From an uncultured Acidobacteriota bacterium (GTDB taxonomy: Bacteria; Acidobacteriota; Vicinamibacteria; Vicinamibacterales; CAVVIG01): a stretch of DNA of 64,000 nucleotides. Positions 3,870 through 64,000 of this stretch are shown here, in pieces. The first letter of the stretch is position 1, and every line of letters starts with the position of its first letter. The stretch spans positions 37,163 through 101,162 of the forward strand of contig CAVOPD010000019.1 of the NCBI GenBank assembly GCA_963697745.1. Direction: 5' to 3'. The notes below the pieces were generated by a model, which was given only the letters and a program-made list of their open reading frames with translations, searched no databases and was not told where the DNA came from. The position numbers were made by a program, and so were the translations under genes.

Positions 3870-4984
3870 GCAGCACCTGCCTTCATCGGTTCGGCCACTG
3901 AGGCCGTCGGCCGTGAACGGGATGGAGATCGTCACGCAGAATCCCTCGTCGTTCGAGAAGACGAACGCGTGATCGGCACGGTAGAGATGTTCGAGCCGGG
4001 CGCGGGTGTTCGTGAGCCCGACACCCTGGTTGAGCAGCGTCAGGTAGTGCGGCGCGACGCCATCGCCGCTGTCGCGGATCCGGATCACCAGACGATTGCC
4101 CTCGCGCCGGGCTTCTATCGCGACCCGGCCCTGGCGCGTGTGGGGAGCGACGCCGTGGCGCACGGCATTTTCGACGAGTGGTTGCAGCAGGAAGTTCGGC
4201 ACCATGGCGGCCAGCGTGTCCGGCTCGATGCGCATCGCCACGCTCAGGCGCCGGCCGAAGCGGACCTGTTCGATGTCCAGGTACTTCTGGAGCATCTCGA
4301 GTTCTTCCTTCAGCGGCAGTTCCTGCACGTTGCCGGACTCGAGCGCCATGCGGAGCAGGTCGCCGAGCCGATCCATCATCCGATCGGCGGCCTCGACATC
4401 GGTGCGCATCAGGCCGGAGATCGCGTTCAGCGTGTTGAACAGGAAATGCGGCTGGAGTTGCCGCTGCAGCGACTGCAACTGGGCCTCGATGAGCCTGGTT
4501 TCCAGATGCGCGCTGTCCAGCGCGCGGCGTTCCGACTCGCGACGGTAGGCGAGCGCGTGAGCCAGACCCACGAGGAACAGGTAGGTCATCAGGATCCAGT
4601 CGAGCTGCGTCAGGTACTCGATTCGCGCCGCGATCCACCAGCCGCGAGGCGGCGGATTCTGCTGCATGAGCAGAATCCGGGTGCCCAGCATCGCGGCCGA
4701 GTGGATGACCGAGTAGGTCAGCGCGCCGGCGATGTGCACGGCGAATGGCCGCCAGCCGTGGCCGCGTGCGAACTGGTACCGGGTGGCGACGCCGCATGAT
4801 GATCGGCGCCATCAGCGCGGGGACGTACCAGTAGACGAGATTCAGGATGACAACGTGAACGCGCCATCCCGCCGACAGGTTCGCCTGCAGCGGCCGACAG
4901 CAGGTACGACTGGATGCTGGAGGAAATGCCGAACGCGGTGGCGATGCCGAGGAGCAGCGGCAGCGACGGTCGACGGGAGGGCAT
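3866..4984 (-). CDS. Membrane sensor histidine kinase of the LytS/YehU type (His_kinase plus HATPase_c), partner of the LytTR regulator, frameshifted
   Basis: LQSLQRQLQPHFLFNTLNAISGLMR (His_kinase H-box) and LLQPLVENAVRHGV...IRIRDSGDGV...GVGLTNTRARLEHLY (ATPase) are present. The N-terminal TM segments are split over three frames (MPSRRPSLPLLLGIATAFGISSSIQSYLL / WRVHVVILNLVYWYVPALMAPIIM / FAVHIAGALTYSVIHSAAML). The 3' end is uncertain. A TGA overlapping the regulator ATG (ATGA, 3866-3869) is in another frame. Confidence 0.8.
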
Positions 4985-5138
4985 GACAGCACTATCAGCG
5001 CCACGGGCGCTGTGGTCAAGGCGCTCGTCCCTGCAGATGCCGCGAAATCGACATTCGTCCCGCGCCAGCCGCAGTTCGTCACCGCAAACGGCTGCGGGGT
5101 CTTCGGCAGACCGTGCAACGTCGCAGAAATCGTCGAAA

Positions 5139-5164
5139 GGGGTCAGACCCCGGGGTCTGACCCC
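5139..5164. repeat. Perfect 26-nt palindrome GGGGTCAGACCCCGGGGTCTGACCCC (REP-like element)
   Basis: The sequence is self-complementary on direct reading. Related GGGTCT..AGACCC hairpins occur at about 5097-5113 and 41984-42003. Confidence 0.85.
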
Positions 5165-5308
5165 ACCGTCAGGACGCCACCGACGACGCGGCAGTCAGCC
5201 GCGTCCTCCCCGATTGCCGCTGTTCACGTCATCGCAGACCGCTTCCATCCCCGAAACGTTGCCCGCGTCAGCACGGCATCCAAAGATGCGCGGCGAGGAG
5301 TTGCCGCC

Positions 5309-8773
<3,465 letters not shown>

Positions 8774-56977: not shown

Positions 56978-57886
56978 TCACTGCTGCACGTGCTTGATGA
57001 ACGTGCCGGCGCGCAGTTCCGAAATCGCGCGCTGCAGTTCCTGCTGCGTGTTCATCACGATCGGGCCGTACCACGCCACCGGCTCTTCGAGCGGCCGACC
57101 GGACACCAGCAGGAATCGGATCCCATCGTCGCCAGCCTGCACGACGATCTCGTCGCCGCGATCGAACAGCACGAGCGAGTGGTTGTGGGCGTCGTAGCGC
57201 ACGTCGTCGCTGCCATCGGTCGCCTCGGTCCGGACCGCCTTCGGATCCGACGCGTCGCGAAACGTCCCCGACCCCGCGAACACGTAGGCAAAGGCATGAC
57301 GTGTGACTTCGACGATGATGCGGCGGCGCTTGCCGGGAGGAACGGAGATATCGAGGTAGCGCGGATCGGCGGCCACCCCTTCCACGGGCCCCTTCTGCCC
57401 CCAGAACTCACCGCAGATCACCCGCGCGCTGGTCCCGTCGTCTTCAGTGACCGTGGGGATGTCTTTGCCGGCGATGTCCTGATAGCGCGGATGCGTCATC
57501 TTGAGTGACGCCGGCAGGTTCGCCCAGAGCTGAAAGCCGTGCATGCGGCCGTTCGCGTCACCCTTCGGCATTTCCTGGTGCATGATGCCGCTGCCCGCGG
57601 TCATCCACTGGACGTCGCCGGCGCCGAGATTGCCGCGGTTGCCGAGGCTGTCGCCGTGTTCGACGGTACCGGCGAGCACGTAGGTGATTGTCTCGATGCC
57701 GCGGTGCGGATGCCACGGGAACCCGGCCTGATAGTCCGCCGGGCGCTCGTTGCGGAAGTCGTCGAACAGCAGGAAGGGGTCGAACTCGCTGGTTTCACCG
57801 AAGCCGAAGCCGCGCTTCAGTTTCACGCCCGCGCCTTCGAGTGTCGGTCGCGCTTCGATGATCTGCTTCACAGGGCGGATGGACAT
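56978..57886 (-). CDS. Pirin-family (bicupin) protein, intact
   Basis: MSIRPVKQIIEARPTLEGAGVKLKRGFGFGETSEFDPFLLFDDFRNERPADYQAGFPWHPHRGIETITYVLAGTVEHGDSLGNRGNLGAGDVQWMTAGSGIMHQEMP. Confidence 0.9.
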   Translation of the reverse strand: MSIRPVKQIIEARPTLEGAGVKLKRGFGFGETSEFDPFLLFDDFRNERPADYQAGFPWHPHRGIETITYVLAGTVEHGDSLGNRGNLGAGDVQWMTAGSGIMHQEMPKGDANGRMHGFQLWANLPASLKMTHPRYQDIAGKDIPTVTEDDGTSARVICGEFWGQKGPVEGVAADPRYLDISVPPGKRRRIIVEVTRHAFAYVFAGSGTFRDASDPKAVRTEATDGSDDVRYDAHNHSLVLFDRGDEIVVQAGDDGIRFLLVSGRPLEEPVAWYGPIVMNTQQELQRAISELRAGTFIKHVQQ

Positions 57887-58140: not shown

Positions 58141-59906
58141 CTATCGCCGAGCAGGCGGCGGTGGCGGAGGAGGAGGTGGCGGGGGCGGCGGCGAGCCGGC
58201 CATCGAACTGCAGCTGCGCAGTTCCATTCGCTTCGAACGCAGCCGTGACCGTCATCTCCACTTCAATGGGAACGCAGTTGAGAAGCGTCTGGCGTGAAGC
58301 GCCACTGCCGCACGGCCTCCTGTGCCGCGTCGGCGAACTCGGGGTTGGTTGCGGTTATCGTCCGCACCTCCGGACGGTGCCGTCGGTCCCGATGAGGGCC
58401 TGCAGCACCACGCGGCCGCCGACCCCTGAGCCCTGCAGTGAGGCCGGATAGCGTGGCCTTCATGTCCGCGATCTTCTTCGGCGGCATGATCCGTCCGCTG
58501 TTCGGCTCGGCGGTGCAGGCGGGCGCCGACGTCGAGCCTGCCGCCGTACCTGCGCGCCGGGAAGCCGTGTCGCCGGCCGGCCCGTCGACGATCCTGATCG
58601 TTTCCTGCAGCGTGCCCACCTGCAGCGTCATCTCCGGCGCAGCGTCTGACCGCCCGCGGAGTTGCAGGGTGTCTTCGATGTTCTGGAATCCGATGCCACC
58701 AACGACCAGGCTGTAGTTCCCCGGCACGAGCCCGAGCAACTCGAAGGCGCCGCGCTCGTTGGTCCGCACTTCGTGCTTTGCGCCACTCGCGGACATGCGT
58801 CACGGTGATGCCGATGTTCGGAATGGTGCCGCCCAGCTGATCGTGGACGGTGCCGGCGAAGGTTGCGAACGGCGACTGCGCCGCGACGACTCGCCACCGA
58901 GGCAGTGAGCGCAAGACCCGCGACAACCACCGAGTATCGTGCGAGCCGCGTGACGGGAGTGACGGGCGACGTGTGAATCGAGCATGGCGCTGACTCTCCT
59001 TTCAAGACTCGACGTGCGGGCCATGGCGGGCGCTGGAACCCACGCGCGTGGGCTGGCGAGCATGCGGGCGAGGTCGACGAGGTGTTCCGCGTAGTCCGGC
59101 GCCTGCACGCCGCGCTCGAGCACGGCATCGTCGCAGGCGTGTTCGCTTTCGAGGCGCAGTCGAGCGGCGGCCATCCAGGCGAGCGGGTTGAACCACGACA
59201 GCGTGCGCAGCGCTTCGCCGGCCAACTGCAGCAGCCAGTCGTTGCGCCGGATGTGTTCAGCCTCGTGTTCGAGGACGACCCGCACACGCGCCGGATGCCA
59301 CGCCTGGGCGCCGCGCGGCAACAGGATCCGAGGCCGCCGCGTCCCCCAGGTCACGAGCATGGACGGGTGGTCGCTCTGGAGGAGTCTGACGGCTTCGAGC
59401 CGCACGTCGTGCGATGCCAGTTCGTTGAGACACTCAGCCCACGGCCCGTCGAGTAAGGACCATGGCGCGGCGCGACCAGGATGCGTCAGCCGCACAGCCC
59501 GGTGATCAGCGTCAGACGCACCGGCGATGACACCTGCAATCCAGACCCACGACGATCACGGCGGCTGCGCTCCAGGCCGCGTCTGGTGAGTCGGACCCGC
59601 CTGACGGCACGGTGGTGTGTCGTTCCCCCGCCGGGGCGGGACGACGGATCTGCCCGACGGCTGCGGGTGCGAGCCCGCGTACCGCCTCCACCGGAGCCGT
59701 CGTTGCGCACACGCGACGGGAACTGCACGTGCCATGCTGGCAGCGCGAGTCCGAGCAGCGGGGCTGCCAGTGCTCCGCAGATCGCCGGTCGCCAGGACGC
59801 AGCGGCGAAGCGCGGCGGAATGGCGGCGGAGGAGACGTGTGGCGAACAGTGTGAGGGCCAGCAGCACGGAGACGCGCACTGTGAGTGTGGCGAGGAGCGT
59901 GAGCAT
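58141..59906 (-). CDS. BlaR1-like M56 metallopeptidase signal transducer fused to a CarboxypepD_reg-like domain and a TonB C-terminal domain, many frameshifts
   Basis: MLTLLATLTVRVSVLLALTLFATRLLRRHSAALRR (TM) / PSMLVTWGTRRPRILLPRGAQAWHPARVRVVLEHEAEHIRRNDWLLQLAGEALRTLSWFNPLAWMAAARLRLESEHACDDAVL (M56 HExxH) / FAGTVHDQLGGTIPNIGITVTH..ASGAKHEVRTNERGAFELLGLVPGNYSLVV (CarboxypepD_reg) / PRYPASLQGSGVGGRVVLQALIGTDGTV..ATNPEFADAAQEAVRQWRFTP.LLNCVPIEVEMTVTAAF (TonB_C). The 3' end is uncertain (58028-58141). One frame there encodes 13 consecutive Pro. Confidence 0.8.
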
Positions 59907-60296
59907 CACTTCGTACCGTCCTTTCGCGCCCGTCGAATGAGCGCCGCAATCCGCTCGAGTTCGGCGTCGCTGAGGCGTGCCGCCTCGCCGCCGAGCAGGG
60001 CGCTGACGACCTTTTCCGTCGACCCGTCGAAAAAGGTGTCGACCAGGTGGCGCAGCGCCGAGCGGCGGGCCGAATGCCGCGGCACGGCCGCGGTGTAGAC
60101 GTAGCGCAGCCCTTCCTGCTCGTGGCGGACGTGCCCCTTGCCTTCGAGAATCCTGAGCTGGGTCCGCACCGTGGAGTAGCTGGGATCGCCGGGCAGTTCC
60201 GCCATCACCTCGGCAGCGGTGGCGCGCCCGCGGCGGTAGAGGATGTCCATGATCTGGCGTTCGCGTCTGGAGAGGGCAGGGTGAGGAGCAGGTCAT
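59906..60296 (-). CDS. BlaI/MecI/CopY-family winged-helix repressor. The ORF is intact from 60250, and the probable true start at 60296 needs one frame correction
   Basis: (..ALSRRERQI)MDILYRRGRATAAEVMAELPGDPSYSTVRTQLRILEGKGHVRHEQEGLRYVYTAAVPRHSARRSALRHLVDTFFDGSTEKVVSALL. Its stop overlaps the blaR1-like ATG (TGATG at 59906). Confidence 0.85.
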
Positions 60297-60324
60297 GTTA
60301 ATTTTGTAGCACCAACGTGCGAAA

Positions 60325-60353
60325 TAAATAACACCTCCGGCGACCGGTGTCAA
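60325..60353 (-). promoter_or_regulatory. Sigma-70-like promoter for the blaI/blaR1-like operon, with a dyad just downstream
   Basis: The minus strand reads TTGACA (60353-60348), then 17 nt, then TATTTA (60330-25). The dyad GCAC-n4-GTGC at 60309-60320 lies between the -10 and the ATG at 60296. Confidence 0.55.
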
Positions 60354-60365
60354 GAGGGAGTTGAC

Positions 60366-61097
60366 TCAGGGTACTTGATCGTCAGGTGTCGGTCGACGAA
60401 GGCTCGGGATCGCGGAGCGGACCTTCGCATCGTGCGCGCCGGCAAGCAGCCCGTCGATCAGTTCGGCGACCCCTTCACCGCGAGCCGCGACCGTCACGAC
60501 GTCAGCCGTCGCCTTGAGCGCCGGCAACGCGTTGCTCACCGCGACGCGCAGACCGCACATCGAGAGGAACGCATGATCGTTCTCGGCATCTCCGATCGCC
60601 ACGGTGTCGGTCGGGTCGACGCGAAGGTCCTCGAGGGCCGGCGCCAATCCCGTCGCCTTGGTGACGCCGGCCGGCAGCACCATCACCGAGCCTTTGTTGA
60701 AGATCACGTGCCACTCGAGCCCGAGGTCGCGGATGGCCGCCAGCACCGCGTGCTCGTGCGGTTCCACGGTGGCGAGAATCGAGGCGCCGACCGACAGCGG
60801 CACGCCGAGCTTCGTGAGCCGATCGACCAGCAGGGGCGGTGGTGGCGGCGCAAACTGGCGGATCGCGCCTGATGCTGGCGTGTACATCAAGGCGCCGTTC
60901 TCGGCGACGATCCGATCGAACACGCGCACCTGTGTCGAAGGTGTCGAACAGGTCGCGGCAGTTCGCGGCCGGTGACGAGGAGCAGGCAGAGGCCCGCAGC
61001 GCGGGCGCGCTCCAGGGCGGCGATCGTCGCATCATCGACCACGCCGTCGTGCGCGATTGTTCCGTCGAAGTCGGTGGCCAGCGCGCGGTAGCCGCAT
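60366..61097 (-). CDS. HAD-superfamily phosphatase (subfamily IIB, Cof-like), frameshifted
   Basis: YRALATDFDGTIAHDGVVDDATIAALERARAAGLCLLLVTGRE (DxDGT motif I) / VFDRIVAENGALMY...FNKGSVMVLPAGVTKATGLAPALEDLRVDPTDTVAIGDAENDHAFLSMCGLRVAVSNA (GDxxND motif). Confidence 0.75.
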
Positions 61098-61098
61098 C

Positions 61099-61790
61099 TC
61101 AGACCACCCGCCAGATGTCGGACGGCGGCGCGTCGTGATGTTCCACCCACTCCTCCCACAACCGGACACCGCCGGTGAATGCGTCCTGTTGCCGCCGCGC
61201 CTGGTGTCGGGGGGCAGTGGATCGACGAGCGACGCGTTGCCGCCGCCCAGCACCACGTAGTCGGCCGCGCAGGCTTCGCGCAACTGCTCGCACGCTTCGC
61301 GGACGGTCTGCCGCCAGCCGTCGAGCCCGGTTCGAGCCAGGCCGCTTTTGCCGAGCCTGTCGGCGAGCGTGTCGCCGAACGGCTGACGAGGCATCCGAGT
61401 TCGAGCCGGACAATCACGCGGCCGGCGACGAGCGTGGAGCCGAGGCCGGTTCCCAGCCCGAGGAAGAACATCCGTCCGCCGTCGTAGGCGCCGAGCGCCT
61501 GCATGGCGGCGTCGTTGACGATGCGAACCGGCCGCTGGAAAGCGTCAGCGAAGTCGTAGCCGACCCAGCCGGGGCCGAGATTGCCGGCTTCGCCGGTCGG
61601 CCCATCGGGACCCGCGCTCCCAGGATAGCCCAGCGATACGACGTCGTATTCCCACGCCGAGGCATGTTCACGGACCTGCCGCATGAACTCGTCCGGGCTC
61701 GAGCTCGCTCCCGGATCGGAACGACGCCACCTCTTGAGCGGCGGATTCGAAGAGCTTCACGCGAGATCCACCCACGTCAACCACCAGCAC
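61099..61790 (-). CDS. ppgK: ROK-family polyphosphate/ATP glucokinase-like protein, about 3 frameshifts
   Basis: LVVDVGGSRVKLF / EFMRQVREHASAWEYDVVSLGYPGSAGPDGPTGEAGNLGPGWVGYDFADAFQRPVRIVNDAAMQALGAYDGGRMFFLGLGTGLGSTLV / DTLADRLGKSGLARTGLDGWRQTVREACEQLREACAADYVVLGGGNA. A GTG start at about 61790 is preceded by GGAGG. The symbol is tentative. Confidence 0.72.
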
Positions 61791-62021
61791 GTTCAGCGAA
61801 CACCTCCGCAATAGTTTGAACGCCAACTTTATGCCGGATCGTCTGCAGCCGTAGCCCGCCAGCGTGAACCATCGCTGATTCTTTATCCCTGCTACCCTGA
61901 TTTCGATACGGCGTGCGCCTTGCTGGAGGCGTAGTATGAGAGCGTTGTTCATGCCGCCTGCCTGGCGTCATGAACGTTTGATGTGCAAGCACCTCGACAG
62001 GTGTGCCTAGGAGGAGAGGTC

Positions 62022-63390
62022 ATGGTAGGTCGCAAGTGGCGTGTCGCACAGGGAGTGCTCGCCGCCGGCGCGGTGGTCGCGTTGGGGAGTCCGGTGTTCG
62101 CTCAGGACGCTCCGAAACAGGTTACGTTTACCAAGGATGTGGCGCCGATTTTCCAGGCCAAGTGCCAGTCGTGCCACCAGCCTAATTCCATAGCTCCGAT
62201 GTCGTTGATTTCGTACCAGGAAGCACGCCCCTGGGCGCGCTCGATCAAGGACCGCGTGAGCACCCGCCAGATGCCGCCGTGGCACATCGACCCGAGTGTC
62301 GGGGTCACGAAGTTCAAGAACGACATGTCGCTCACCCAGGAGCAGATCGACACGATCGTCCGCTGGGTGGACGGTGGCGCCGTGCAGGGCGACCCGAAGG
62401 ACATGCCGCCCGCCAAGCCGCTGATGGCTGACAACGAGTGGACCGCGCGTGAAGGACGGCTTCGGTCCGCCCGACCTGGTCATCAGCGTCGCCTGAATAC
62501 GTGATGCCGGCGCAGCACCAGGACATGTGGTGGCGTCCGATGAGCGATATTCCGGTCACCGAACCGCGCTGGGTCCGGATGGTGGAGATCCGTCCGACCA
62601 ACCTGAAGGCCCGCAAGATCGTGCACCACGCGATTGCCTACCACGTGCTCAGCCCCGACAACACCGGTGAGGTGAACACCGGCATCGGCAGCTTCGGCAA
62701 CGCGGCGGCCGACGACCTCGTGAACCGGCGCCCGCAGTTGATGGAATGGGCGATCGGCAAGGGCTACGACCGCTTCATGGAAGGCACCGGAAAGATGGTG
62801 GTGCCGGGCGAGAAGATCTCCTGGGACCAGCACATCCATGCGGTTGGCGAAGAGATCAAGGGCGGCACCGAGATCGGCCTGTGGTTCTATCCCGAAGGGG
62901 CAGGAGCCGACCAAGCACAGCTACCTCGTGGCCTTCATCGGCCATCAAGCGCGGCGCACCGGGGCAGGCGGCTCTGGACATTCCGCCGAACTCGATTGCC
63001 CACACCGAAGGCTTCACGGTGCTGAAGGAGAACACGGTCATCACCAACTTCCAGCCGCACTTCCACCTGCGCGGCAAGGCGATGCAGGTTGAAGCGATCT
63101 TCCCGGACGGGCACACGCAGGTCATCAGCTACGTCGGGAATTTCAACTTCAACTGGATGACCAACTACATCTACGCCGACGATGCGGCGCCGGCGTTCCC
63201 GAAGGGCACCATCATCCACGTCACCGCGTGGTACGACAACACGAAGGCGAACAAGAACAACCCCGATCCGGAACAGTGGGTGGGCTACGGCGACCGCACA
63301 GTCGACGAGATGGGTCATGCGTGGATGAACGTCGTCTACCTGACCGATGCCGAGTATCAGGATTGGCTGGCAGAAGCACAAGACCGATGA
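62022..63390 (+). CDS. Secreted c-type cytochrome domain (CxxCH) fused to a PHM/DBH-like (copper type II ascorbate-dependent monooxygenase-like) domain, 3-4 frameshifts
   Basis: GGAGGAG RBS. MVGRKWRVAQGVLAAGAVVALGSPVFAQ; VTFTKDVAPIFQAKCQSCHQPNSIAPMSLISYQEARPWARSIKDRVSTRQMPPWH; then KIVHHAIAYH ... WDQHIHAVGEE ... FQPHFHLRGKAM ... RTVDEMGHAWM. Confidence 0.7.
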
Positions 63391-63445
63391 GAAGACGACG
63401 CAACAGCAGCAATAGCTCGTGCGTAGTCGGCGGCGACTCGAGAAG

Positions 63446-63478
63446 CGGGGGGCTGGTTCCGACCGGCCTCCCGTTTGC
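63446..63478 (+). terminator. Hairpin plus short T-run after the cytochrome gene
   Basis: cggggggctgg / ttccga / ccggcctcccg forms an 11-bp stem including two G-U pairs, followed by tttgc. Confidence 0.5.
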
Positions 63479-63567
63479 TATGTCAGGACTGTAGTTTGTC
63501 GCTGCCCGGTCTGCGGACGCGCGAATGCGGCGTCCGTGGAGGGGCAATAATAGCAGAGAGCGTAACG

Positions 63568-64000
63568 ATGACTCGATGGACAGTCGCAAAGCTATGTGTG
63601 GCAGCGATGCTCGCAGGCGGAGCGCTGCTCTCCGCTCAGGTACAGCTGCCCAGTGAACCCGGCGGGAAGTTCGGTCGCAGCATCACCGGCGCGTACGAGG
63701 GCTGGTACGACAACAAGGACGGCAGCCACGTATTTCTCGTCGGCTACTACAACCGCAATCTTGCCGCAGGCGGTGGACATCCCGGTCGGGCCCAACAACC
63801 GCATCGAGCCGGGCGGTCCGGACTTCGGACAGCCCACGCACTTTCTTCCCGGCCGGCAGGTCGGCATGTTCACGATCACGGTGCCAAAGGAGTTCACGCA
63901 GCAGCAGCGGCTCACCTGGACGATTCGTCGACAACGGCCTGACCACCTCCATCCCGCTCCGGCTGCACACGGATTACAACATCAGCCCGTTCGAGGACGC
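63568..64000 (+). CDS. Hypothetical secreted protein, 3' end off-window, at least one frameshift
   Basis: MTRWTVAKLCVAAMLAGGALLSAQVQLPSEPGGKFGRSITGAYEGWYDNKDGSHVFLVGYYNRN / VDIPVGPNNRIEPGGPDFGQPTHFLPGRQVGMFTITVPKEFTQQQRLTWT. Confidence 0.45.

Follow-up and report, generated by a model that had tools for sequence, protein, structure and literature searches.

The gene at positions 62022..63415 on the + strand of the window (the whole stretch of 64,000 nucleotides that was analysed) encodes, after removal of five inserted bases, a protein of 462 amino acids with a c-type cytochrome domain followed by a second, larger core. Sequence profiles and a structure model support this core as a remote but genuine homolog of PHM and DBH, with complete sets of putative CuH and CuM ligands. 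The protein is probably, although by no means certainly, a periplasmic redox enzyme with three metal sites, a heme c and a PHM/DBH-like dicopper core, for which monooxygenation and the electron route are inferred.

The textbook examples of noncoupled binuclear copper monooxygenases are peptidylglycine alpha-hydroxylating monooxygenase (PHM), dopamine beta-hydroxylase (DBH) and tyramine beta-monooxygenase (TBM), and cores of this type produce peptide hormones and noradrenaline in animals. Enzymes of the PHM/DBH type hold two copper ions about 11 Å apart, carry out O2-dependent hydroxylation and take ascorbate as the external reductant. How electrons cross the gap of about 11 Å between CuH and CuM is a matter of debate, as is the way in which reduction and substrate binding are coupled. 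To our knowledge, the noncoupled dicopper members studied so far are all eukaryotic, ascorbate-driven glycoproteins of the secretory pathway, which are hard to handle.

Gene structure and inserted bases

In tblastn comparisons with the proteins P0001 and P0002, the gene appears as five collinear pieces in shifting frames. The insertions were placed by DNA alignment to the intact copies L084 and L085, and L084, an environmental contig that is 96.9% identical and has an intact open reading frame, is the reference for the inserted bases. On the + strand, the first insertion (C, 62448), which causes a +1 frame change, and the fourth (A, 62937) are not in L084, and the second (A, 62485), third (T, 62890) and fifth (G, 63369) are found in neither L084 nor L085. 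The fifth insertion makes a false stop codon at 63388-63390, where the original prediction had ended the gene (63390). This stop is in the wrong frame and the corrected reading frame ends at 63415, with the C-terminus ...KTTQQQQ as in homologs. The same prediction had counted three to four frame corrections; the frame is indeed broken, but the alignment to L084 gives five. A Shine-Dalgarno-like GGAGGAG, read from the sequence, lies on the + strand at 62010..62016, 5 nt 5' of the ATG.

Sequence errors most likely account for the five frameshifts in this copy, because the neighbouring genes carry frameshifts too: the frame changes three times in a ROK-like gene, once in a HAD gene and twice in the gene downstream, which encodes the partner protein described below. 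The two environmental copies lack the insertions, all five changes are single-base insertions and intact orthologs exist at 94-97% identity. The gene of the source genome could instead be a decaying pseudogene with no functional product at these coordinates, as the five frame-disrupting single-base insertions within 1.4 kb and their position outside homopolymer runs might suggest, but we find this improbable. The protein sequence between the insertions is 96.7-99.3% identical to the intact environmental copy, without stop codons or deletions, the frame also shifts in four adjacent, unrelated genes, and 7/7 of the changes mapped at base level are insertions (five in the enzyme gene and two in the partner gene). 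Technical error fits this pattern of changes better than gene decay.

Predicted signal peptide and heme c domain

The signal peptide of the original prediction is visible in the sequence as a predicted Sec signal at residues 1-27 (62022..62102, + strand), with cleavage inferred after VFA. In the signal sequence MVGRKWRVAQGVLAAGAVVALGSPVFA, which is followed by QD, a basic n-region, a hydrophobic core and an AxA-like site can be recognised. In the AF2 model of P0001, an intact homolog that is 94% identical, pLDDT stays under 50 for residues 1-29.

The monoheme c-type cytochrome domain covers about residues 31-125 (62112..62396, + strand) and contains the CxxCH heme-attachment motif (C48, C51 and H52; 62163..62177, + strand), invariant in 43 diverse relatives. 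C48 and C51 are the only cysteines of the whole protein. A CxxCH motif in a protein with a predicted export signal is one criterion for a c-type cytochrome, and it is satisfied here. The candidate distal heme ligand is M84 in RQMPPWH (62271..62273, + strand), where M84, P85 and P86 are all invariant in A3, the alignment of the 43 relatives, which share 30-50% identity. M60 (62199-62201, + strand), at least 90% conserved in A3, is an alternative candidate.

In the window protein the Pfam matches to Cytochrome_CBB3 (PF13442, E 2e-4, 22.1 bits with a threshold of 27) and Cytochrom_C (PF00034, E 1.7e-3, 20.1 bits with a threshold of 21.3) are both sub-threshold, and the Pfam and NCBIfam scan of the reconstructed protein returned no matches other than such sub-threshold ones to cytochrome c. 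Among the relatives, 40/43 match Cytochrome_CBB3 at E <= 1, and the close homologs P0061, P0074, P0089 and P0110 have precomputed matches to PF00034 or PF13442. The model of the heme domain has three helices (36-48, 65-79 and 106-117), and the closest PDB sequences belong to hydrazine synthase alpha and PccH, in each case to the heme domain. The heme c domain that had been proposed is supported by these family matches and by the invariance of C48, C51, H52 and M84.

Putative dicopper core

Five motifs had been read in the protein beforehand, and all of them are found on the + strand and in the order given: KCQSCHQ (residues 47-53, 62160-62180), KIVHHAIAYH (residues 198-207, 62615-62644), DQHIHAV (residues 268-274, 62825-62845), QPHFHLRG (residues 343-350, 63052-63075) and VDEMGHAWM (residues 426-434, 63301-63327). 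The spacings, estimated at roughly 70, 75 and 80 residues, measure 68 (H202-H270), 75 (H270-H345) and 82 (H347-M429) in the window protein, and the same spacings are 64, 70 and 70 in PHM. Judged from sequence conservation, the motifs are above chance: they are near-invariant or invariant in the 43 relatives and are aligned to the PHM/DBH ligands, with E values from 1e-8 to 1e-10.

The N-terminal beta-sandwich of the core, the putative CuH domain, covers about residues 150-293 (62470..62903, + strand) and is assigned by hhalign and HMM alignment to the N-domain of PHM/DBH and by the beta strands of the model. H201-H202 (62624..62629, + strand) are aligned to the CuH ligands H107-H108 of PHM, in the segment vvHHvvvf, which corresponds to tvHHMLLF in PHM and LVHHMEVF in DBH; there is no variation at H201, and H202 is conserved in at least 90% of the relatives. 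The third CuH ligand, H172 of PHM, is aligned to H270 (62831..62833, + strand), which is also invariant, and here WDQHIH compares with LQVHYG in PHM and LEVHYH in DBH.

The C-terminal beta-sandwich, the putative CuM domain, covers about residues 294-445 (62904..63360, + strand), and the hhalign alignment extends through residue 440. H345-x-H347 (63058..63066, + strand), both invariant, are aligned to the CuM ligands H242-x-H244 of PHM, in the segment fqPHmHlrGk, which corresponds to yrvHtHhlGk in PHM and sqlHtHltGr in DBH. M429 in the DEM motif (63310..63312, + strand), at least 90% conserved, is aligned to the CuM ligand M314 of PHM, and at this position hhalign sets GDRTVDEMAHAW against GGTSSDEMCNLY. 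Residue numbers are those of the window protein, and those of P0001 are one higher after residue 230. In the numbering of P0001, the invariant positions of A3 are C48, C51, H52, M84, H201, H271, H346 and H348, and H202 and M430 are conserved in at least 90% of the relatives.

The AF2 model of P0001 has a pLDDT of 71.8 and a pTM of 0.75. Its confidence is moderate, and in the loop that precedes the Met ligand (residues 412-430) pLDDT falls below 50. The 31 best matches of this model in a Foldseek search of the PDB are all human DBH (4zel) or rat PHM, with probability 1.00 and E values from 1.8e-11 to 5.5e-8, and are followed by PNGase F-type proteins, which belong to the same clan. The target-normalised TM-scores with PHM cores are 0.50-0.63. 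The A3 profile retrieves DBH (E 8.4e-10) and PHM (E 7e-9) from PDB sequences, and hhalign aligns A3 with the PHM core over 237 columns, with 95.2% probability, an E value of 2.5e-8 and the six copper ligands in register.

The assignment could have been refuted on two points, similarity to the PHM fold and conservation of the His and Met residues. The first is given by Foldseek, the A3 profile and hhalign, and the second by the six ligands, each of which is either unchanged in the 43 relatives or conserved in at least 90% of them. The Pfam search, which had been suggested as a check, succeeds only in part. Cu2_monoox_C (PF03712) matches 28/43 relatives (best E 1.5e-6) and Cu2_monooxygen (PF01082) matches 13/43 (best E 9e-5), and 13/120 relatives of P0147 have a precomputed PF03712 match, but the window protein itself has no match to either model at E <= 1. 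Because its relatives match and it does not, the protein is taken as a remote superfamily member missed by the curated Pfam models, PF01082 and PF03712 of clan CL0612. Neither phmmer with the protein nor A2, the profile of 30 close homologs, reaches PHM among PDB sequences; the link to PHM is detectable only through diverse relatives or structure, not through close homologs alone. A match to the Cu,Zn-SOD 3mnd (E 0.018) crosses the domain boundary, is lost when profiles are used and was discarded as noise.

Proposed reaction

In the mechanism that we favour, the heme c would take electrons from the periplasmic respiratory pool and deliver them singly to CuH, from where they would move on to CuM, the direction of flow being assumed. 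CuM would activate O2 and one oxygen atom would be inserted into a C-H bond of the substrate; this C-H hydroxylation is inferred. The fused cytochrome would replace ascorbate, and the substrate would be something other than a glycine-extended peptide. In the hhalign alignment, R240, N316 and Y318, which bind the peptidyl-glycine in PHM proper (EC 1.14.17.3), correspond to Q343, H431 and W433 of the window protein, and these columns are variable across the wider family (A3). The peptide-binding residues of PHM are not kept, and therefore the substrate is expected to differ.

The same architecture of heme c, electron-transfer copper and catalytic copper might serve a chemistry other than C-H hydroxylation, in a cytochrome-c-linked enzyme that reduces or oxidises a small molecule or in a dehydrogenase that passes electrons outwards. 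Some features allow this: none of the neighbourhoods examined gives a clue to an organic substrate, the substrate-binding residues of PHM are lost, some relatives (P0134) have AhpC/TSA peroxiredoxin and thioredoxin-like domains joined to them, and the NCBI name of some is 'thiol-disulfide isomerase', and both of these points hint at peroxide or thiol redox. The structural matches also include PHM crystals with nitrite, azide or CO at the copper. We nevertheless regard this alternative as rather unlikely, since all characterised members of the PHM/DBH/TBM fold are hydroxylases, and we know of no characterised non-hydroxylase among them. The His2Met set of CuM and the His3 set of CuH are exactly kept, and the tandem, diverging paralogs of the family, described below, are more easily explained by diversifying substrate specificity than by one reaction on a small molecule. 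The small molecules named for such a reaction are O2, H2O2, superoxide and nitrite. In the dehydrogenase form electrons would flow out to the heme, and the model named is the cytochrome-c-fused copper nitrite reductases.

Partner protein and gene neighbourhood

The 5' part of a conserved partner gene lies directly downstream at 63568..64000 on the + strand, where it was identified by tblastn with the partner of locus L001 and where it is cut by the end of the window. Extra bases interrupt its frame at positions 63767 and 63924. The partner protein has about 290 amino acids, is secreted and consists of two beta-sandwich domains. Conservation of the secreted protein from 63568 onward had been put forward as a check, and it is met in close and distant loci alike. 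Among related loci gathered with the A2 profile, the partner gene directly follows the enzyme gene in 76/80 close loci. In four distant subfamilies, a homolog of the N-terminal domain of the partner adjoins the enzyme gene in 5/5 loci, with matches by hhalign (98.7%, E 3e-16) and hmmsearch (E 4e-29 to 3e-18). More than 6000 homologs of the partner exist. We infer that the enzyme works with, or on, this dedicated secreted beta-sandwich protein.

Searches of Pfam, NCBIfam and PDB sequences with the partner and its homologs gave no match, and Foldseek gave only generic matches to tandem Ig-like domains, with TM-scores of 0.2-0.35. The partner is not homologous to the enzyme. A possible metal site of the partner, made up of H93 and the vicinal cysteine pair C283-C284, was dropped, as these residues are missing from divergent partners. 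When neighbouring ORFs of 88 loci were clustered, no third conserved gene emerged, and a scan for promoters and terminators around the enzyme-partner cassette gave no signal above shuffles. In Vicinamibacterales the cassette occurs in tandem arrays, with multiple diverging paralogs per genome.

The pairing with the partner, which is tight, evolutionarily deep and independent of gene order or orientation, is compatible with a protein-modifying oxygenase that hydroxylates a side chain of the adjacent partner to build a cofactor or metal site. The partner is secreted and belongs to no recognisable catalytic family, and PHM itself has peptides as substrates. This idea is modelled on the heme-enzyme/partner pairs MbnH/MbnP or LodB/LodA. 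Its chances appear slight, because the ratio of the two genes is not strictly 1:1, with arrays such as T-T-T and T-P-T-T-P (T, enzyme; P, partner), the loss in divergent partners of H93 and C283-C284, the partner's most striking residues, leaves no evident universally conserved target residue, and there is no direct evidence of a modified partner.

A broader reading, in which enzyme and partner make up a widespread and ancient bacterial two-component system, with a PHM/DBH-type dicopper oxygenase connected straight to the respiratory chain by its fused cytochrome c and a beta-sandwich subunit of a new family, is possible but is offered only tentatively. The subunit would then either present substrates or give specificity in the oxidation of extracellular or soil organics, or be itself the modified protein.

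Comparison with known systems

PHM, the catalytic core of PAM (1PHM, 1OPM and 1SDW), shares with the window protein the fold of two beta-sandwich domains, the local motifs HH, H-x-H-x-x-GK and G-x-T-x-DEM, and the alignment of all the copper ligands H107, H108, H172, H242, H244 and M314 with similar spacing, at about 13-16% identity. The window protein differs in its bacterial origin, its predicted periplasmic location and its N-terminal heme c, which is inferred to stand in place of the dependence on soluble ascorbate. Its core, unlike that of PHM, has no cysteines, and therefore no disulfides there, and a dedicated partner protein is encoded with it.

The group of DBH, tyramine beta-monooxygenase and MOXD1 (4ZEL) gives the top match both by structure (E 1.8e-11) and by sequence profile (E 8.4e-10), and DBH and the window protein share H-Y/I-H as the pattern of the third CuH motif. 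Both have an extra domain N-terminal to the catalytic core, which is a DOMON domain in DBH and a class-I-like cytochrome c here; the N-terminal domain of the window protein is helical and has a CxxCH motif, unlike the DOMON domain of DBH/MOXD. No DOMON or dimerisation domain was matched in the window protein by Pfam.

Other systems offer analogies only. Three-domain NirK has a like wiring, from heme c to an electron-transfer copper and on to a catalytic copper, within one periplasmic polypeptide. Cytochrome-c-fused NirK carries type 1 and type 2 copper in cupredoxin folds, and the window protein differs from it by the double jelly roll of PHM. The cytochrome domain of cellobiose dehydrogenase, which feeds the mononuclear copper oxygenase LPMO outside the cytoplasm, is a mechanistic analogy; this pair uses a heme b that acts in trans and a histidine-brace copper, and the fold is unrelated. 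For the pairing with the partner, MbnH/MbnP is an example of a periplasmic heme enzyme encoded beside a secreted beta-sandwich partner whose family is otherwise unknown. MbnH contains no copper and is of the diheme peroxidase type, and no homology of the window components to MbnH or MbnP was found.

Significance and annotation of the family

According to a 2022 survey of the fold, PHM makes up the eukaryotic branch of the clan to which it belongs (PMC8812541). In the searchable literature, the papers that cite PF01082 together with PF03712 are all on animals. A full-text search found no paper on bacterial cytochrome-c/PHM-like proteins; subscription journals were outside its scope, and absence is unproven. 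The family is large and has no characterised member in the searchable literature.

A bacterial version of these enzymes, if the proposed reaction is true, would be tractable for triggered delivery of single electrons with a spectroscopic readout. Its assets would be the absence of disulfides, a built-in and visible covalent heme donor, for which heme attachment is inferred, and thousands of natural variants. It would also mean that Vicinamibacterales and other Acidobacteriota, soil bacteria that are both abundant and little understood, have an oxidative activity that has gone unrecognised, with multiple paralogs in each genome. If the two-component reading also holds, a 'eukaryotic neuroendocrine' dicopper family would gain a large bacterial branch that is independent of ascorbate and has an accessory protein. 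At present the proteins of the family carry public names such as 'cytochrome c', 'thiol-disulfide isomerase' and 'hypothetical'.

Gene structure and frameshifts

Three overlapping ORFs in different frames span 61983-63390 (plus strand), and read across three frames they encode a single protein whose frame moves by +1 several times. The closest database proteins, P0001 and P0002, come from soil metagenomes and are 94% and 97% identical to the window protein, respectively; as tblastn queries they match collinear pieces at 62022-62447, 62449-62487, 62486-62899, 62938-63369 and 63371-63412. L084, the contig encoding P0002, has an intact ORF and 96.9% nucleotide identity to the window, and the DNA alignment places five single extra bases in the window, at 62448, 62485, 62890, 62937 and 63369. 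Without these bases the protein has 462 residues and ends in KTTQQQQ like its homologs, with the stop codon at 63413-63415; a GGAGGAG box, read from the sequence, lies 5 nt before the ATG on the plus strand. The original prediction ended the gene at 63390, which is a false stop, and counted three to four frame corrections where five are required, but its five motifs (CxxCH, HH, H, HxH and M) all stand at their places in the corrected translation.

The frames of the neighbouring genes were checked by mapping the proteins of the syntenic locus L001 onto the window. There are three frame changes in the ROK-like gene (61102-61826, minus strand), one in the HAD-hydrolase gene (60417-61090, minus strand), and two within 430 nt in the 5' part of the partner gene (63568 onward, plus strand), where the insertions lie at 63767 and 63924. 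The pirin gene (56990-57886) is intact, as is the BlaI-like gene (59909-60283), and the BlaR-like gene of 577 residues (58235-59909, minus strand) may have one insertion near its 3' end. All seven frame changes mapped at base level are insertions, none of them within homopolymer runs, and between insertions the protein identity to the intact copy is 96.7-99.3% (tblastn). Phase switches seem frequent over the whole window in a GC3-phase scan, which is a noisy method. Several adjacent genes in 58200-64000 are broken by single-base insertions, which points to an error-prone assembly. A gene interrupted five times could also be a true, dead pseudogene, which is very unlikely, since unrelated neighbours share insertion-only damage without a substitution load, unlike usual pseudogenes; the frameshifts are read as probable sequence errors.

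PHM/DBH fold and copper-site residues

Pfam and NCBIfam scans of the corrected protein give only sub-threshold cytochrome c matches, and neither the single sequence nor the profile of close homologs (A2) reaches PHM in the PDB. In the AlphaFold2 model of P0001 (pLDDT 71.8, pTM 0.75), two beta-sandwiches come after a helical N-terminal domain. The best Foldseek match of this model in the PDB is human DBH (4zel, E 1.8e-11), followed by 30 DBH/PHM chains (E 6e-11 to 5.5e-8, probability 1.00), and PNGase F-type proteins, the other branch of the PHM/DBH clan, rank only below all of these. A3, a profile built from 43 full-length relatives that are 30-50% identical (mean column identity 28%), matches DBH (E 8.4e-10) and PHM (E 7e-9) among PDB sequences, pairing vvHHvvvf with TVHHMLLF and fqPHmHlrGk with YRVHTHHLGK of PHM, and nvHyh with QVHYG of PHM, which is LEVHYH in DBH. 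For hhalign, a PHM core was rebuilt from the printed alignment and a C-terminal stretch that is identical to residues 198-310 of PDB chains 1opm and 6amp. A3 aligns with this core over 237 columns (probability 95.2%, E 2.5e-8), and GDRTVDEMAHAW is paired with GGTSSDEMCNLY, by which PHM M314 is matched too.

A3 shows no variation at C48, C51, H52, M84, H201, H271, H346 and H348 (P0001 numbering) and conservation of at least 90% at H202 and M430, the pattern expected of a metal site. Both findings that would have refuted the original prediction, lack of similarity to the PHM fold and lack of His/Met conservation among homologs, are thereby ruled out. For the Pfam families it had named, the window protein does not reach the curated thresholds, but Cu2_monoox_C is matched by 28 of the 43 relatives (best E 1.5e-6) and Cu2_monooxygen by 13, a fourth line in agreement beside the model, the A3 profile and hhalign.

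By comparison, then, the protein is exported, carries a heme c motif and the full CuH and CuM ligand sets, and has a PHM fold. PHM R240, N316 and Y318, the residues that bind peptidyl-glycine, align with Q, H and W. The only two cysteines are those of CxxCH, so all PHM disulfides are absent, and the Pfam scan finds no DOMON domain. The same scaffold might serve a different chemistry; this is unlikely, though it keeps some weight. The protein is best placed in the PHM/DBH superfamily, as a remote bacterial branch of unknown substrate.

Heme domain and inferred electron transfer

In the P0001 model this domain has three helices, and CxxCH comes after the first of them (36-48). A3 has an invariant Met within RQMPPWH and a nearly invariant second one within APMSL; in this region it comes closest, among PDB sequences, to hydrazine synthase alpha (C-terminal heme domain, E 5e-4) and PccH, and 40 of the 43 relatives match Cytochrome_CBB3. 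The domain very likely binds heme c, and the axial Met is undecided.

In PHM and DBH, electrons enter at CuH, CuM binds O2 and abstracts the substrate hydrogen, and each turnover takes two electrons. By inference from this established mechanism, CuH would be the electron-entry site, O2 would bind at CuM, where the substrate hydrogen would be abstracted, and two electrons would be used per turnover. The periplasm is not known to contain an ascorbate system, and bacteria commonly feed single electrons to their periplasmic copper enzymes through a fused cytochrome c, cytochrome-fused NirK being an example; for these reasons an inferred route from heme to CuH to CuM is here the most economical reading.

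Partner protein

The ORF from 63568 onward (plus strand) covers the 5' portion of a gene whose product is a secreted partner of about 290 residues. This partner has more than 6000 homologs, all unnamed, and the family has no Pfam, NCBIfam or PDB sequence match. The partner model (pLDDT 75) has two beta-sandwich domains, for which Foldseek gives only generic tandem Ig-like matches. Three of the 83 close loci leave no space downstream; in 76 of the remaining 80 the partner lies at most 350 bp downstream on the same strand, a neighbourhood conservation that the original prediction had suggested examining, and the other four are enzyme-enzyme tandems.

Homologs of the partner N-terminal domain also accompany more distant subfamilies, whose identity to the window protein is about 30-35%. 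In L086-L088 these single-domain genes (L086:5498-6004, L087:5522-6004, L088:3742-4224; 160-168 residues) lie directly upstream and overlap the enzyme gene by 4 bp, in L089 the homolog (246 residues) is directly downstream, and in L090 it is adjacent and convergent (242 residues, with a PKD-like second domain). The distant and close N-terminal domains are related at 98.7% (E 3e-16) in hhalign and at E 4e-29 to 3e-18 in hmmsearch, and the pairing is evolutionarily deep. A protein encoded so regularly beside the enzyme could be its substrate, which is considered highly improbable. Clustering of neighbour ORFs across loci gives no third conserved gene.

The close partner subfamily (A4) has an invariant vicinal Cys pair behind a glycine run (GGGGEVCCW, residues 275-285) and an invariant His in GQPTHF. 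H93 and C283-C284 were rejected as a universal partner feature, being lost in divergent copies.

Tandem arrays of enzyme (T) and partner (P) genes, for example T-P-T-T-P, (T-P)x2 and T-T-T, occur in L009, L012, L015, L022, L025, L030, L050 and L066. Copies inside one array share 68-78% identity, hence local duplication is enlarging the family in Vicinamibacterales. L014 has an extra divergent T-P pair on the other strand (41% and 31% identity).

Family distribution and genomic context

Among 90%-identity clusters, relatives of the corrected protein number at least 8000; the best 120 share 72-97% identity with it and carry the names 'cytochrome c', 'mono/diheme cytochrome c family protein' or 'hypothetical'. 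When 1.84 billion 50%-identity representatives are searched with a profile, 15,646 proteins reach E <= 1e-3, and 2029 of them E <= 1e-30. GTDB species representatives contain at least 577 stretches coding for a relative, and the best 79 of these are almost throughout from MAGs of Vicinamibacterales or other Acidobacteriota, often with two to three copies per genome. The G+C content of the window (66.8%) fits such an origin. Nine contigs with 72-77% identical Vicinamibacterales-type genes (L007, L018, L031, L044, L055, L035, L016, L008 and L045) are labelled 'uncultured Bifidobacterium sp.', 'Bifidobacteriaceae', 'Cyanobacteriota', 'Reyranella sp.' or 'Acidimicrobiia', and are probably mis-binned or mislabelled MAGs.

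A full-text literature search, which does not cover subscription journals, found nothing on bacterial cytochrome c/PHM-like members, and the papers within its reach that cite the two Pfam families are all on animals. A 2022 fold analysis describes PHM as the eukaryotic branch of its clan (PMC8812541), and the word 'bacterial' is absent from a 2025 PHM/DBM review (PMC12164859). A precomputed PF03712 match is found in 13 of 120 relatives of the protein P0147, so the PHM link is latent in databases. The electron-input domain, the obligatory partner family and the phylogenetic setting are new, and the catalytic scaffold was already known.

Larger architectures in the superfamily include P0134 (1251 residues; AhpC/TSA, cytochrome c, thioredoxin-like, cytochrome c, PHM-like), P0145 (1064 residues; two cytochrome c/PHM-like modules and EF-hands), P0405 and P0407 (about 743 residues; NHL/SGL beta-propeller repeat fusions) and P0391-P0399 (about 850-885 residues). 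Some relatives are named 'thiol-disulfide isomerase' by NCBI.

In L086-L088, an AbgT-family transporter (PF03806) and a HupE/UreJ_2 metal-transporter-like gene precede the partner on the same strand. Just upstream of the enzyme gene in L090, at 2011-2415 and 3970-5919, lie genes for a copper storage protein (Csp, PF03860) and for a PQQ-dependent dehydrogenase, and a PQQ_2 protein lies near the cassette in L002 (10976-12367); these neighbours may hint, circumstantially, at a link to copper or periplasmic oxidation. In L003 (10653 onward) and L004 (10774 onward) the NADH dehydrogenase (nuo) operon follows directly downstream of the cassette, on the same strand.
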